From Candidatus Latescibacterota bacterium (GTDB taxonomy: Bacteria; Latescibacterota; UBA2968; UBA8231), in contig CBDAOB010000005.1 of assembly GCA_965197905.1 (NCBI GenBank), positions 608,001 to 672,000 on the forward strand: a DNA stretch of 64,000 bases, in the 5' to 3' direction. Below, in pieces: positions 21,186 through 34,627 of this stretch (position 1 is its first letter; each line of letters starts with the position of its first letter). Position numbers and translations under genes: made by a program. The notes under the pieces are model-generated. The model was not told where the DNA came from. It did not search any database and was given only the letters and a program-made list of their open reading frames with translations.

Positions 21186-21484
21186 CGTTTCTATTCTCGC
21201 AGGTTTGGCCTTGAACAGGGCCCTCGGTATCTCGTTCGGCGAGGCGGCCGTTCCGGATACACCGGGATTCGCGCGCCGGCAAATCAGGTCGAGCACGCTG
21301 CCGGTGTCAAGACGCCCACCTGCAGACGTGACTTTTTTTGCGACGCCGTTCTACCTGGAATCATCTAATCGAGTTAACTGCAGTATAGACCTGTCCGGCG
21401 GAAGTCGTGATCGCGAATGGAGGGAGAATCCACATCCACCACCGGACTCGAAGGTTGCCCTCATTACCCATTAAGGAGAAGAAG

Positions 21485-22279
21485 ATGAAAAAGTTGGCTT
21501 TCGTATTCGCCGTTTTGCTCGCAGTGGGCGTGGCCGGCGCTCCGGTCGCGGCCGGCACCTTCGCGACAAAGCCGGGTGATCCTGGCAATACGGTAACCTT
21601 CGAAATCTCCGCGCCGCTGGAGACCATAGTTGGCACGACTGGTGGAGCCGTCAAGGGACATTTCGACTTCGATCCGAACAACGTCAAAGCCTTGAAGAGC
21701 GGCATGTTCGTCATCAACGTCGCATCTTTTGAAACCGGCATTGACCTGCGCGATGAGCACTTTCGCGACAACTTCCTGCATACAGCCAAATATCCCAACG
21801 CTACGTTCACCTTGGGCAAGGTAACGAAAACGTCGGCGAAGTCGGTAAAGACCGGCGCGTCCGTGGACCTGGAGCTGGAAGGCACCCTGGACATGCATGG
21901 GGTCCAACGTAGCGAGACCGTCGCCGCCACCGTCACCTATATGGATGACGGCATGGTCCCCGACAACGTGCTGCCCGGAAACGTAATCGCCGTTAAGGCG
22001 AACCTTCGGGTCGCCTTGGCTGACTACAAGATCGAGCGCCCGGAAATGCTGGTGCTCAAGGTCGGCGAGGTGGTCGACATCGACGTCATTCTGAGAATGA
22101 CCGACTCCCCTAAAACGGTGAATGCCTGCGGTGGTTGCGGGGATTGTGGCGGATGTGGGGATTGTGGCGGATGTGGGGATTGTGGTGGATGTGGTGATGG
22201 CGGTGGCTGCGGCGGCAGTTGCGGTGGTGGTTGTGGTGGTGGCTGTGGAGGCGGTTGTGGCGGTAGCTGCGGAGGCTGA
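21485..22279 (+). CDS. Secreted YceI-family protein with C-terminal Cys/Gly-rich tail
   Basis: AAGGAG RBS; signal peptide MKKLAFVFAVLLAVGVAGAPVAA; YceI motifs TGIDLRDEH, KYPNATF, GTLDMHGV; tail (CGGCGD)4...(CGGx)n. Confidence 0.9.
   Translation: MKKLAFVFAVLLAVGVAGAPVAAGTFATKPGDPGNTVTFEISAPLETIVGTTGGAVKGHFDFDPNNVKALKSGMFVINVASFETGIDLRDEHFRDNFLHTAKYPNATFTLGKVTKTSAKSVKTGASVDLELEGTLDMHGVQRSETVAATVTYMDDGMVPDNVLPGNVIAVKANLRVALADYKIERPEMLVLKVGEVVDIDVILRMTDSPKTVNACGGCGDCGGCGDCGGCGDCGGCGDGGGCGGSCGGGCGGGCGGGCGGSCGG
22127..22276 (+). repeat. Coding tandem repeat: 18-bp unit ggggattgtggcggatgt x3 (22139-22192, third copy with 1 mismatch) plus degenerate CGGx codon repeats
   Basis: Read directly; encodes 50 aa containing 14 Cys, 30 Gly, 4 Asp and 2 Ser. 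Confidence 0.95.
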
Positions 22280-22302
22280 CCAACCTTTTCAGTATCAACA
22301 AC

Positions 22303-22339
22303 AAAGCCCCGCGGATTCCTGCAATCTGCGGGGCTTTTT
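22303..22339 (+). terminator. Intrinsic terminator, probably bidirectional
   Basis: aaagccccgcggatt-cctgc-aatctgcggggcttt stem-loop with T tail, between convergent genes. Confidence 0.85.
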
Positions 22340-22372: not shown

Positions 22373-23582
22373 TCACATCTTCTCGTCCAGAGATCTCTCG
22401 CTTTGCATGTGCTTCAATGAGGGTATTACCCGCTTCAGCTCCGCCACGTAGTCCGTTTTCGATACATCTGTTCGTGACTTAGCGGCGCGCGCGAAGCGAA
22501 TAAATTCGTCCGTGGCAGCTGTGTCGACGCCGTTGACCGATTGTTCCACCACCCCAACACAACGAAAACGATTCAGGTCCAAGCTATCTCCCTCGCTGTA
22601 GAACTCCTCGAACGGCTTCTCGCCCGAGGTGTCACTGGAGGTGAACAGGCAAGGCCACCTGTTCTGTGGTAGCAATTTGTCGATGGATGCCCTGGCCTCG
22701 TCCTCAGTCCGGCACTCGAACGCCTCGTACCCCAACATACTTAGAAGCTCGAGTGCGATCTCGGGGAAGGTTTTTTCTTTCAGCACTTCCAATTTCGGAA
22801 AAAAACATCGCCGTTCTCGCCCAGTATGCTTGACAGCAAACAGAGATGTCCAGCCTCCTCGTGGGAGATGAAATATCGCCGAACATCCTTGGGAGCCGCG
22901 AGTGGTTGCCTCTTTTGCAGGCGTTGGAGAAGACCGAAGGGCAGGCTGCCATTGGAGAACGCGACATTGGCGAATCGCGCAGAGGAGTAGTGCTGAACGT
23001 CCGCGTGTGAAAGCAAGACCCTCTCCATAACCATCTTTGTGGCGCCCATAAGGCTGCCGGGATTGACCGCTTTATCCGAGGACACCGAAAAGAAATTGCG
23101 GCATGGTCTTGGCAGGTTGTGCACAAAGTCATTCAAGAACAGGACATTCGTATCCACCATACGCATCAGGGAATAGACATCCTTTTCCGAACGCACATGT
23201 TTCAAGGCGGACAGATTCAGAATAAAGTCGAACGGCTCCTGGTCAGAGAAATAGCGCGCGAACTCGGTACTGCCAAGTCCAATGGGCAATTCTACCAGTT
23301 CATCAGGTGGCCGAATATCCGGCGATGAACGGAGTTCTCGAACCACCTCCACCAGACCATTTTCGTTCAAGTCGAACAACGCCATGGTCTTCGGTGAAAA
23401 CTCCAGAATAGCCCGAACGGTTGAAAAGCCGATCGATCCGGCGGCGCCAACAACAGCGATCCGGCTACCATTTAGCCGTTCGCCGATTTCGCTCGGTGGT
23501 CATCCAGATCACCTGCAAAAAGCGAACGTTCGCGACCGGTAGCGATTTTCTCGTAATCCGAGAGGATGCGTGGCTGGATCAT
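22373..23582 (-). pseudogene. Polysaccharide biosynthesis nucleotide-sugar 4,6-dehydratase (Polysacc_synt_2, CapD/PseB-like), split by two frameshifts
   Basis: MIQPRIL..GRERSLF.GDL / shift at ~23491 / EIGERLNGSRIAVVGAAGSIG...SALKHVRSE...VSSDKAVNP..MGATK...ARFANV / shift in A7 run 22799-22805 / PKLEVLKEK...TSGEKPFEEF. Confidence 0.8.
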
Positions 23583-23676: not shown

Positions 23677-25356
23677 CTACTTCCGATTCGCAGCCAGGCC
23701 CGCGCGCGCGCGGAGCACGACGGGGAGTTCCGAATCGGCTAATCGCCAGGTGGCAAGCGCTTGTTCGTAGGCCTGTGCGGCCGCTTCGGTCTGGTTTCCC
23801 ATTTCGTAAGTCTTGGCCAATCCCAGCAACATGTGCCCGCTTCGGGGCCGTTTGGCGAGCGCTTTCTGAAAGGCGTCGCGGGCTGTGCGCCAATCGCCGG
23901 CTCTGAGCGCAACCTCACCGTGGCTTTCGTGCAGAGAGCGGGCAAATTCAGGCGGCTCCTCGTATGGCAGCGCGGCAGAACTGGAAATGGCTCTTGCGAT
24001 ACGTTCGTATGCCTCATCGTGCTCACCCCTGACGCTGTGTATCTGTGCCTGAAGCTGGTCGGCGAGGATTTCGAGGTAGTCGACCCGCCGCCGCCGGTGG
24101 TAGCGGTCCCTCCGGGGCGGCTCCTCCACGAGATACATCCAGGTTAGATTGGTCAGCTTGGCCAGCTCACTTATGGCCAGATCCACATCGTCTGTGGCCA
24201 GCGCGCTCATTCCCCGGGTGTAGGCCAACTGGCCGTTGGCGAACAGGCCGCCAAAGTTGGCGCTTAAGGTGTCGTTGGCCGCCAGTTTGGCTAGGGCAGC
24301 GGATGCCAGTTTCCATTCGCGGTAGCGAATGTGCAACCGCACCCGCGCCATACGTCCCTGGTAATAGATGATCGTGCGCCGACTGCTCAGCGCTACCTCT
24401 TCAAGCTTGCGCGCCCACCGTAGGCCCTCCCGGTAGCGTCCGTCTTCGGCGCAGTTGGCTACCAGGTAGCTGAGGTTGTGCACATAGTTCCAGTTGTTGT
24501 ACGCCGGCGTACCGTACTCGGCCATGTAGGTGGAATCCACCGCGAACGCTTCGACGAATGAAGCCCTGGCACCGGCATAGTCGCCGCTCAAATAGCGGAT
24601 ATGACCGGGCATGTGAACGACGTGTGCGTTGGCAGGCGCGAGGGCTGCTATCTTCTCAGCACTCTCGTGGGCCGCTCCGGGATTGTCCCCGCGTTCCTCG
24701 ATATGAATGTAATAGTGGTGAACCCCGAGATGGTCGGGGCGTGTCTTCAACAACGGTTTGATGAGCGCCAGGGGATCGGGCTCGCCTTTTCGCGGATGAC
24801 CGGGATAATAACCCCGCATAAGGAAGCGGATGAGAAAAATCTTGGCTTCGACGTCTTCGGGGTACGCGGCGATAAGGCTCTGCATCTCTTGGATGTAGGC
24901 CTGGCGGCCGATGGAATCGAGCAGCACGGTCGCCCGCAGATATCGTTGCTCACGGTCTGTAACATCGGGGATCAAGCTCTTGAACTTGCGAAAGGCGGTC
25001 CTATTCTCCGACCTCCTTCCACGCGGCGTTTGATAGATGCCCCACCAGGCTACAGCACATGAGGAATCGAGACGGGTTGCCGTGCGAAACGACCTCATGG
25101 CTTCGTAGTACCAGAACCCGTGCAGGAGGGCAAATCCCTGGTTTACATAACGTTGTGCCTCCGGCGACATCGTGGTAGCGGGAAACGAGGCGGTGCTGAT
25201 GCCGGTCAATAACGCCGGATAATCCGAAGGCTGTGGCGGGGTACTACAGGAAAGAAGGCAGAGGAGTAGGCCGAAGAGAATCAAGGGTGGCGCCGCCGCA
25301 TGGCGCGTTGGGGCACGGATATCGTAGTTCAATACACCTTTTGGTCGACATCTCAT
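23677..25356 (-). CDS. TPR-repeat putative lipoprotein
   Basis: Hydrophobic stretch ending LLSC; AQRYVNQG..LLHGFW..EA.RSF, HYYIH, HMPGHI, HN..Y motifs; C-terminal TPR. Confidence 0.8.
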   Translation of the reverse strand: MRCRPKGVLNYDIRAPTRHAAAPPLILFGLLLCLLSCSTPPQPSDYPALLTGISTASFPATTMSPEAQRYVNQGFALLHGFWYYEAMRSFRTATRLDSSCAVAWWGIYQTPRGRRSENRTAFRKFKSLIPDVTDREQRYLRATVLLDSIGRQAYIQEMQSLIAAYPEDVEAKIFLIRFLMRGYYPGHPRKGEPDPLALIKPLLKTRPDHLGVHHYYIHIEERGDNPGAAHESAEKIAALAPANAHVVHMPGHIRYLSGDYAGARASFVEAFAVDSTYMAEYGTPAYNNWNYVHNLSYLVANCAEDGRYREGLRWARKLEEVALSSRRTIIYYQGRMARVRLHIRYREWKLASAALAKLAANDTLSANFGGLFANGQLAYTRGMSALATDDVDLAISELAKLTNLTWMYLVEEPPRRDRYHRRRRVDYLEILADQLQAQIHSVRGEHDEAYERIARAISSSAALPYEEPPEFARSLHESHGEVALRAGDWRTARDAFQKALAKRPRSGHMLLGLAKTYEMGNQTEAAAQAYEQALATWRLADSELPVVLRARAGLAANRK

Positions 25357-32993: not shown

Positions 32994-34627
32994 GATTCCG
33001 CACCCGCACCCGCACCCGCACCCGCCCAACCGTTCCCCCCAGCGCGAACCGACCTTTCTTCCTTGAGCACCTCGGCGCCATGGGCGTTGCCACAGATCCA
33101 GTCCACCACTTCCACGTCATGGCCCATCTTCCGCAGACCGTTGGCGATATCGCTGTTCATTGTATCGAGGATCTCTATTGGTTCTCCGGTCGTCACGTGC
33201 AATCTGGGGGAGCTGGCCACTTGTAACGAGGTGGCCCCGAAATCGACGAGCTGTTGGGCCATCATGGTGGAGACGCAGATAATCCGGCGCCCACCCGGGA
33301 GACCGATAGCCGCATCGCGGTCCATCGAGCGGACCAGCAGGGGACAGCCGTTATTCAGCGGCCGTTTCCCGGGGGCAACCGAGTTGGCCCGGCCCGGATG
33401 GGGATTGAACCGGCACATTCCATGTCCCAAAATAATTCCGGTTCCGGGTACGGTAAAACAGGAGCCGAATTTCCCGCCCTGGGTCACGGTCATGGAGACC
33501 ACGTTGCCCTCTATGTCGGTCGCCGAGATGTGATGGGTATGGGTATTGGATTTCCCAGACGCCCCTTGGGTGGAGCGGTCGACGTTCTCGGGAAACTGCA
33601 GCAGAGTCTCGACACGGCCACGAGCGCAATCGGCGCTGAGAAGCTGTTCTATGGGGACCTCCATAAAGTTGGGGTCGGCCAGGTAGAGCAGTCGGTCTCG
33701 CCAGGCTAGCTTGGCCACCTCCGCAAGCCGATGCCAATATATCGCCTGGTCCGCATTCACCGGCTCGAAACAGTCCAACATCCGCAACATCTGCAGGGGA
33801 GTAAGCGAACCGTGCGTGAGGACGGGTCCGTAGACTCGAGCATCGCGGTAACGCACGGCGTACGGCTCGCCCACCTCGGCTTCGTAGGACGCCATATCCT
33901 CACGACTCAAGATCCCGCCCGCTGCTCGCACGCTGTCGGCGATGGTGCGTCCCAGGTCTCCGTCATAGAAGTCCCGCCAACCGGCCGTGGCCAGGCGGCC
34001 AAGGGTCTTTTCCATGTCGGGGCGATGCCAGGTCTCATCCGCACCCGGGAGCCGTGCATTCGGCATGAGGTGGCGGACGGTCGGCTCGTACCTGCGAATC
34101 GCCTCTGCGCATTCGGCGGTGTCGTCGGCCAGCTCGCGGCCATAGGGAAATCCATCCTCCAACAGCTGGCGGGAGTGGCCCACAATCCGTTCCCATGGTT
34201 GTTGCCCCCAGCGCTCCCACAGGGTGCCCATCGCTGCCATCTGCCCAGGCACGGCTACCGACAGGGGACCGTAAACGTTGGCGTCGCCGCGGACGCTACA
34301 TCCGTATTCGTCTTCGTTGATGCCTATAGGATTCGAACGGCGGGGAAGGACTTCGAACATCGACTCGTGGGCGGTCGCCGGTGCTTTGCCGCTGGCGTCC
34401 AGTGACCAGGTTTCTCCGGTGGATCCGTCGACCACGACGGCCGACGACATGTAGCCGCCGATCCCGTTCTTGTGGGGAGCCAGCATACAACAGGCGAGGG
34501 CGGCGGCCGTCGTCGCATCCATGGCGTTACCGCCCTGCTCCAGAACTCGCGCCCCGACGCGGGCCGCCTCGTCCGGCGAGGCGGCAACGGCACCTTTTAT
34601 GGAGACGACCTCGTACCCTTCGATCAA
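32990..34627 (-). CDS. ggt: Gamma-glutamyltransferase family (Ntn hydrolase)
   Basis: GAVAA, GGNAMDA, NGIGG, VAVPG, FYDG, HTHHIS (catalytic Thr region), PGKRP, LPGGR; probable TTG start after GAGGG. Confidence 0.9.
   Translation of the reverse strand: MIEGYEVVSIKGAVAASPDEAARVGARVLEQGGNAMDATTAAALACCMLAPHKNGIGGYMSSAVVVDGSTGETWSLDASGKAPATAHESMFEVLPRRSNPIGINEDEYGCSVRGDANVYGPLSVAVPGQMAAMGTLWERWGQQPWERIVGHSRQLLEDGFPYGRELADDTAECAEAIRRYEPTVRHLMPNARLPGADETWHRPDMEKTLGRLATAGWRDFYDGDLGRTIADSVRAAGGILSREDMASYEAEVGEPYAVRYRDARVYGPVLTHGSLTPLQMLRMLDCFEPVNADQAIYWHRLAEVAKLAWRDRLLYLADPNFMEVPIEQLLSADCARGRVETLLQFPENVDRSTQGASGKSNTHTHHISATDIEGNVVSMTVTQGGKFGSCFTVPGTGIILGHGMCRFNPHPGRANSVAPGKRPLNNGCPLLVRSMDRDAAIGLPGGRRIICVSTMMAQQLVDFGATSLQVASSPRLHVTTGEPIEILDTMNSDIANGLRKMGHDVEVVDWICGNAHGAEVLKEERSVRAGGNGWAGAGAGAGAES
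32998..33027. repeat. Hexamer microsatellite (ccgcac)x4 plus a variant copy at the ggt/cytochrome junction
   Basis: Read directly; encodes the AGAGAGAGA tail of GGT. Confidence 0.9.

Follow-up and report, generated by a model that had tools for sequence, protein, structure and literature searches.

Chains that are flexible and dense in Cys usually bind soft metals, as metallothioneins do. Metallothioneins and the Cys-rich copper storage proteins (SmtA, MymT, Csp) are Cys-dense, aromatic-free and disordered without metal, Csp being a helical bundle. The precursors of the microcin B17 type, which give thiazoles and oxazoles, have a Gly-rich core with GC and GSC units.

The YceI (polyisoprenoid-binding) lipocalins, represented by PF04264 and by the structures of E. 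coli YceI (1Y0G), TT1927b (1WUB), and BcnA (5IXH), are barrels; according to PMC9113575, they hold ubiquinone-8 or polyprenyl ligands and have been modelled as peroxyl-radical quenchers acting with cytochrome b561. Fusions of YceI with cytochrome c are also known (PMC8981238). Exported Cys-Gly repeat peptides, for their part, are currently read as MNIO substrates; the described precursors are the oxazolins (Buf_EGKCG, HvfA), the bufferins, and the TIGR04222 proteins (PMC12452194, PMC11252979).

The gene analysed here combines a YceI barrel with such a repeat. It lies in a stretch of 64,000 nucleotides from a Candidatus Latescibacterota genome (hereafter, the window) and spans an open reading frame (21485-22279, forward strand) for a 264-aa protein in which a YceI barrel stands between a predicted Sec signal and a Cys-Gly tail. 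Its features are the following:

21473-21478, forward strand: ribosome-binding site AAGGAG, 6 nt 5' of the ATG (sequence)
21485-22279, forward strand: YceI-Cys-tail gene, 264 aa, with the stop codon TGA at 22277-22279
21485-21553, forward strand: predicted Sec signal peptide, residues 1-23 (inspection: basic start, hydrophobic core, without twin arginine)
21554-22102, forward strand: YceI beta-barrel, residues 24-206, APLETIVG-motif subfamily (Pfam, AlphaFold2, Foldseek, alignment)
22127-22198, forward strand: tail block 1, four CGGCGD units, 8 Cys, period 3 (sequence)
22208-22276, forward strand: tail block 2, CGG[S/G] units, 6 Cys, period 4, Cys-Gly-X end (sequence)
22303-22339, forward strand: terminator-like hairpin and T run between convergent genes (folding)

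The gene and its barrel

A preliminary description of this DNA had presented the gene as a standalone one with its own ribosome-binding site and terminator, and this is borne out. The AAGGAG element also precedes the orthologue in genome G002; the neighbours, divergent on the upstream side and convergent on the downstream side, are on the opposite strand; and the hairpin (22303-22337) has 15 pairs and a folding energy of -25.4 kcal/mol (z -6.3, matched by 0 of 200 shuffles), with Ts after it.

The PF04264 profile matches residues 36-201 above its curated threshold (80.2 bits, cut-off 23.7). AlphaFold2 gives a confident antiparallel beta-barrel at residues 24-206; the low pLDDT of residues 1-20 and the first strand at residue 24 agree with the signal peptide predicted by inspection. 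In Foldseek, the barrel matches 1y0g (E 1.3e-12, TM 0.80 by target), and the known lipocalins share the fold at E values from 1e-12 to 1e-9, together with the RDxH and GxLxxHGV segments and predicted export. By profile and modelled fold, the protein is a YceI member, and its barrel is a candidate ligand binder. It differs from the described lipocalins in belonging to the APLETIVG subfamily, which lies far under the cut-off of the YceI equivalog PRK03757 (46.2 bits, 232 required), and in having no cytochrome b561 among the neighbour genes scanned; thus, neither the equivalog-level score nor the adjacent cytochrome of the PRK03757 / BcnA-LcoA system is found at this locus. Moreover, the 13 matched PDB sequences (161-191 aa) are too short for a Cys-repeat tail like that of the window protein.

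The tail: sequence, codons, and strain variation

The tail comprises residues 215-264, that is, 50 aa (G30 C14 D4 S2; 28% Cys, no aromatic residue, no His), and holds all the Cys of the protein. Its formula is (CGGCGD)4-GGG-(CGG[S/G])5-CGG, with Cys spacings of 3 (seven times), 6 (once), and 4 (five times); the formula first proposed, (CGGCGD)4-(CGGx)6, had the composition, the Cys count, and the periods right but lacked the GGG spacer and the truncation of the last unit. Only one of the 127,954 six-frame ORFs of the genome passed a Cys+Gly window filter, namely this gene, and its 14 Cys per 50 residues are the genome maximum, the runner-up having 12.

Like metallothioneins, the tail is Cys-dense (14 of 50 residues), aromatic-free, of low complexity, and predicted to be disordered (pLDDT about 34). 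Unlike SmtA, MymT, and Csp, it has no family match, is predicted to be exported, is fused to a barrel, and consists of slippage repeats of variable number; it has no helical bundle such as that of Csp, and the whole is not a small stand-alone cytoplasmic protein. The tail can therefore be called metallothionein-like in make-up, metal binding being a candidate property. Its Gly-rich composition with GC and GSC units also recalls the precursors of the microcin B17 type, from which it differs in the lack of a YcaO gene in 7/7 carriers of the family and in having, instead of a leader, both a signal peptide and a folded domain.

The repeat units differ mostly at silent positions. All 16 pairwise differences among the four 18-nt units fall at codon position 3; the five 12-nt units show 26 differences at position 3, six at position 1 (Gly/Ser), and none at position 2. 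Nine of the ten variable columns across the units are third codon positions. In an ungapped comparison with the G002 orthologue, for which an end-anchored register of the tail is assumed, synonymous codon changes outnumber non-synonymous ones by 21 to 2 in the tail ends and by 44 to 16 in the barrel. As its codons indicate, the tail is under selection. The idea that synonymous variation reflects selection on the peptide rather than recent slippage alone is thus supported by the third-position bias; yet two of the 18-nt units are identical, which implies that recent slippage occurs too.

Strain coverage, examined up to position 22500, was obtained from assembled contigs, rather than raw reads, of four runs (at most three samples, three studies). 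A contig of run X1, which may be the source sample, covers 22120-22295 with no differences. In the contigs of two further studies, there are variants shorter by a net 18, 21, or 6 nt, and X1 itself has a minor one shorter by 36 nt; all four are in frame. Since units of 12 and 18 nt make in-frame change the expected outcome, these variants document variation, not selection. The preliminary description had named lack of read support for the repeat as a refutation; the contigs bear the repeat out, one exactly (possibly from the source sample) and the others with in-frame variation. An assembly artefact is rejected by the contigs of three studies together with the homologues. A selenoprotein read through UGA is rejected as well: 8 of 10 checked relatives (9 with G014) end with TAA or TAG after the tail, no repeat continues past the TGA of the window gene, the terminator follows, and a tail-less G070 paralogue ends with TAG.

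Elsewhere in the window, a perfect 6-nt repeat (32998-33025, 4.7 copies) occurs where a gamma-glutamyltranspeptidase gene meets a multiheme cytochrome gene; read in the frame of the cytochrome, it appears as Cys-Gly repeats upstream of the likely start.

Cys repeats on YceI barrels and on other proteins

A search of YceI homologues for Cys-Gly tails, as proposed at the outset, shows the tail type to be conserved, 17 of 23 close homologues having at least four tail Cys. Three others have one or two and three have none (one of them frameshifted), some of the short or missing tails being possibly collapsed assemblies. The tail units of these homologues are CGG, CGD, GKCGG, SCGGSEG, and NPCGG; the spacers between Cys (G, D, K, N-P, A, S-E) vary while the Cys are kept, across changes of unit type and over barrels just 30-60% identical, so that the strict Cys spacing claimed at the outset is not a feature of the family. 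A Cys-Gly-X terminus is present in 16 of the 23. Among further 50%-identity representatives, 15 of 149 harbor CG or NPC repeats, at the C-terminus, at the mature N-terminus or at both, with up to 31 Cys; this count is biased toward tailed matches because the search profile contained tail columns. Judging from source names, tailed forms occur in Poribacteria, Planctomycetota, KSB1, and GN15.

A quick tree built from 99 barrels (35 with a tail, 3 with a short one, 61 with none) requires 15 changes of the tail label, seven of them forced by well-supported branches; the tree covers representatives up to P0100 with barrels of at least 150 aa, excludes eight partial, frameshifted, or double-domain rows, and may include truncated sequences among the tail-less ones. 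The tail is old or recurrent, and readily lost. In G001, from the same genus as the window, the tail gene (L038:1-330) is broken by an internal stop and frameshifts, and around G168, in a search of 20 genomes, two copies were found, both tail-less. Plasmid searches gave no tailed relative with usable context, and the ESM Atlas yielded just uninformative YceI clusters, below 0.9.

Two genomes, G070 and G069, have two YceI paralogues each (L075:9138-9776, L076:9772-10572, L180:5515-6246), one with a full NPC/DPC tail and the other shortened or tail-less; the positions are swapped between the genomes, and transposase-like genes lie near. Furthermore, three matches (P0128, P0146, and P0152) are YceI barrels with a long C-terminal extension, in which a c-type cytochrome domain was confirmed for P0128 and P0152.

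At the same locus, the gene of G004 and G020 has lost the barrel: it still encodes the signal and what is left of the first strands, together with (GDGC)n or (GGDDGC)n repeats that hold 27 and 30 Cys. The open frame and the Cys-Gly-X end are retained as well, and both genomes carry other, tail-less YceI genes. The tail is thus kept and lengthened where the barrel has been lost, in what counts as a single deletion lineage since the two genomes belong to one genus. A single-sequence fold model of the tail-only protein has low confidence (pLDDT 44), and a search with the G020 protein gave no homologue at E 0.001, low complexity being the probable reason. The persistence of the tail in these two relatives weakens an obligatory coupling of the polythiol to a quinone-binding barrel, as the preliminary description had envisaged it.

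A search with the NPC-type tail of P0028 alone retrieved, at E up to 10, 45 proteins among 1401 candidates: 25 YceI proteins, six SoxA/TsdA-type cytochromes c, four cytochromes P460, two DUF5818 proteins, one OmpA-domain protein, one DUF6789-like protein, one probable off-frame product, and five without a precomputed family. Half of the non-YceI carriers (10/20) are therefore c-type cytochromes; others are membrane proteins in which hydrophobic segments flank the repeat. In many of the non-YceI carriers the repeat begins directly after the predicted cleavage site, and many NPC-type proteins have repeats at both ends. Examples of NPCNPC on cytochrome c, cytochrome P460, DUF5818, OmpA, and membrane proteins are P0212, P0216, P0218, P0222, P0227, P0240, and P0247. 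Occurring on YceI and on 20 other proteins, the module seems to ride on unrelated, mostly signal-bearing carriers. Portability in this sense concerns the NPC type, by low-complexity matching at lenient E-values, and would extend to the CGG type only via the hybrid tails of P0011 and P0013 in the close clade. The NPCNPC repeat itself matched no Pfam or NCBIfam model, and literature searches, which left most subscription journals out of scope, gave no relevant paper on YceI with a Cys-repeat tail or on NPCNPC. Taken together, these sequences point to a YceI subfamily with a portable Cys-repeat appendage that is real, selected, and apparently undescribed.

Possible functions of the tail

Of the functions proposed at the outset, that of a polythiol for metal binding or redox chemistry is still the best candidate. 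The form that we favor, at somewhat below an even chance, is a periplasmic polythiol that stays unmodified and binds ions of soft metals or metalloids, such as Cu(I), Hg(II), Zn/Cd(II), and As(III). In principle, we can depict the following scenario: the protein would be exported and its signal cleaved; the tail Cys would be held reduced (a DsbD-type protein is encoded) or metal-loaded; the flexible Gly spacers would let CxxC and CxxxC pairs wrap ions into thiolate clusters, with a capacity scaling with repeat number; and the barrel would be mainly a stable exported carrier, dispensable for metal binding. Its weight comes from soft-metal binding being usual for such chains. Moreover, spacers that vary around Cys kept in 17 of 23 homologues agree better with a role in capacity than with one that depends on folding or on recognition by an enzyme; since the only constant is a variable number of Cys, with no fixed spacing, carrier, or known enzyme needed, the tail is best read as a capacity device. 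Against the polythiol speaks the apparent lability of the tail, namely the six of 23 homologues where it is absent or short, the broken G001 copy, and the 15 label changes. Furthermore, the window's genome encodes DsbB in addition to a DsbD_TM protein, and HvfA, which is an exported peptide with Cys repeats, had all its Cys in disulfides, four in number, when isolated in unmodified form (PMC11252979), so that free thiols in the tail are not assured.

The neighbours of tailed homologues, the inspection of which had been suggested at the start, speak in both directions. In the near-identical loci of G100 and L108, an arsenosugar ArsM gene (above cut-off) lies about 60 bp downstream of the tail gene on the same strand, followed by a multiheme cytochrome; in L100, the tail gene is likewise followed by such a cytochrome, and a phosphate transporter is present. 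In L096/L097, a Cys-rich YHS-domain gene, a gene for a CxxxC protein without family match, and a TPR gene lie upstream of the tail gene; Cys-rich YHS proteins accompany mercury operons. Metal-type neighbours thus occur in two of about six tailed lineages with context, but redox-type ones (DUF3179, directly upstream of the tail gene in one genus, and the multiheme cytochrome) are about equally common. The window neighbourhood consists of sugar and redox enzymes, with no metal-resistance or metal-regulator gene among the neighbours scanned, and the G070 neighbours are unrelated. Among metagenome loci, 10 of 80 have C-terminal Cys after the barrel, and neighbours were read for 16.

Those redox neighbours bear on a second reading, which we keep although it appears unlikely: a thiol-disulfide buffer or relay, in which CxxC pairs would cycle, passing electrons to and from a barrel-bound quinone or redox partners in the periplasm, replacing the usual cytochrome b561 of YceI. 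What keeps it is an oxidising periplasm (DsbB, the HvfA disulfides), the quinone biology of YceI, and the cytochrome associations. The quinone or polyprenyl ligands of other YceI barrels (PMC9113575), the YceI-cytochrome c fusions, both those known (PMC8981238) and P0128 and P0152, the cytochromes in L100 and L108 and among half of the non-YceI NPC carriers, and the presence of DsbB with DsbD all agree with it, as does DUF3179, listed as a UxxC/T selenoprotein family in PMC13188914. On the other hand, G004 and G020 lose the barrel while the tail grows, one or two dithiols would suffice where up to 31 Cys are found, half of the window tail has period 4 rather than CxxC, and ligand binding is only presumed in a barrel scoring 46 against the 232 bits of the equivalog. 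Metal binding and a redox relay may also overlap.

That the tail is a RiPP-type substrate, its Cys converted to thiooxazole, thiazole, or thioether by a trans-acting enzyme to yield a metallophore like the bufferins and oxazolins, we consider improbable. The resemblances are several: the family shares with MNIO precursors a Sec signal, Cys-Gly repeats, KCG units in some relatives, and a GGCGX-like end (PMC12452194, PMC11252979); the GKCG units of P0008, P0010, P0014, and P0016 are close to oxazolin EGKCG repeats, and large fused precursors have been reported (both PMC12452194). The Cys-Gly-X end of 16 close homologues points the same way, but it could also arise by internal slippage under an inherited stop.

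The search for enzymes gave a different picture. We considered ten carrier genomes (G000, the window's own, 91% complete, with G002, G004, G014, G015, G020, G025, G069, G070, and G100, of which G002, G004, G020, and G070 are single contigs). MNIO (PF05114) occurs in 7 of 168 genomes of the phylum and in one of the ten carriers, G069, where it lies on a contig other than that of the YceI gene, beside a TIGR04222 gene whose product has a similar Gly-Cys tail end. None was found in G000, and tblastn of G000 with the G069 MNIO, its partner, and the TIGR04222 protein gave nothing at E 1e-5. YcaO is present in 21 of 76 family genomes and in none of the seven family carriers; it is restricted to one genus (L184-L193; 21 of 31 genomes) and is missing from the two tail-gene carriers of that genus. 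The four SPASM genes of G000 are all at a distance of more than 700 kb, and none reaches the RiPP-maturase cut-off; one passes the cut-off for a sulfatase maturase, one resembles AhbD/NirJ, and two are without assignment. No maturase adjoins the YceI-tail gene in any scanned locus, and the tail matched no bufferin, oxazolin, TIGR04222, or other Pfam/NCBIfam model, these being the NCBIfam models and not the Buf_EGKCG profile of the survey. The scan for MNIO and radical SAM genes proposed in the preliminary description, which for radical SAM covered the SPASM type, yielded in G000 the four SPASM enzymes, and that description's suggestion of a substrate for an enzyme encoded elsewhere is weakened, though an enzyme of an unknown class, or a radical SAM without SPASM, may still act on the tail. 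By the tests made on these sequences, the protein is not a member of an MNIO or YcaO precursor family, from which its YceI barrel as carrier also sets it apart. In PMC12452194, the main text mentions neither YceI nor NPC, and two supplementary files contain neither YceI, PF04264, nor NPCNPC. The same survey lists 67 of 2583 genomes with EGKCG precursors, and 490 of 1372 with TIGR04222 precursors, as lacking MNIO; the YceI-tail family behaves like the loosely linked TIGR04222 tails.

It is equally hard to favor a disulfide cross-linker, the tail polymerising the protein or tying it to the envelope or matrix: many flexible Cys, predicted export, DsbB, the repeats at both ends of many NPC-type proteins, and that on an OmpA-domain protein would suit it, but the gene is single in a genome without a second such tail as partner, and very short tails exist. 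As for a weakly selected slippage product with little function, the length differences between strains, the six homologues with absent or very short tails, the repeated gain and loss on the tree, and the broken G001 copy are outweighed by the 21 to 2 ratio of synonymous to non-synonymous changes in the tail ends (44 to 16 in the barrel), the survival of Cys across unit types, and the open frame, signal, and Cys-Gly-X end of the tail-only genes, and we regard it as having little probability.

Returning to the soft-metal polythiol, a YceI family with such a tail in genomes where no MNIO was found can show directly whether Cys repeats bind metals in the periplasm without being modified, and it contains its own natural controls, with Cys numbers from 0 to 31, paralogues lacking the tail, and orthologues lacking the barrel. 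Should the tail prove to bind metals, it would add a periplasmic class akin to metallothioneins and provide a tunable metal-binding tag that can be exported; a modified tail would probably imply an enzyme of unknown class. A wider proposal, possible though on balance doubtful, is that portable Cys-repeat tags (CGG, GKCG, NPCNPC) form a widespread undescribed class making exported proteins of uncultured phyla into periplasmic metallothioneins; this class would be the counterpart, without an enzyme, of MNIO-modified metallophores such as oxazolins, and perhaps also their evolutionary source. The barrel-less genes would then show a free-standing gene for a Cys polymer arising by deletion of its carrier barrel.

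One neighbour recurs with the tail gene:

23677-25356, reverse strand: TPR lipoprotein-like gene, convergent to the tail gene and co-inherited with it in the family; a functional link is only a candidate

Searching with this gene retrieved it in 9 of 76 family genomes, and the tail gene faces it in seven: with one gene between in G000 and G002, directly in G015, G025, G004, and G020, and across a contig break in G014. The remaining two, G131 and G032, have no tail gene within 1.5 kb. The TPR protein carries an HHYYIH motif, and its gene nearly always adjoins the tail gene or DUF3179. A GTGAA-W3-TTCAC-like palindrome, possibly a regulator site, lies 100-120 nt before the tail-gene start in G004, G015, and G020 (weaker in G014 and G025); it is absent before the window's gene and not enriched in G000. 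Lastly, a Polysacc_synt_2 gene of the window (22373-23385, reverse strand) is split in two where an A run near 22805 lacks one base. G002 and G001 have one uninterrupted frame of 403 aa instead, and the split could reflect either a misassembly or a genuine frameshift.
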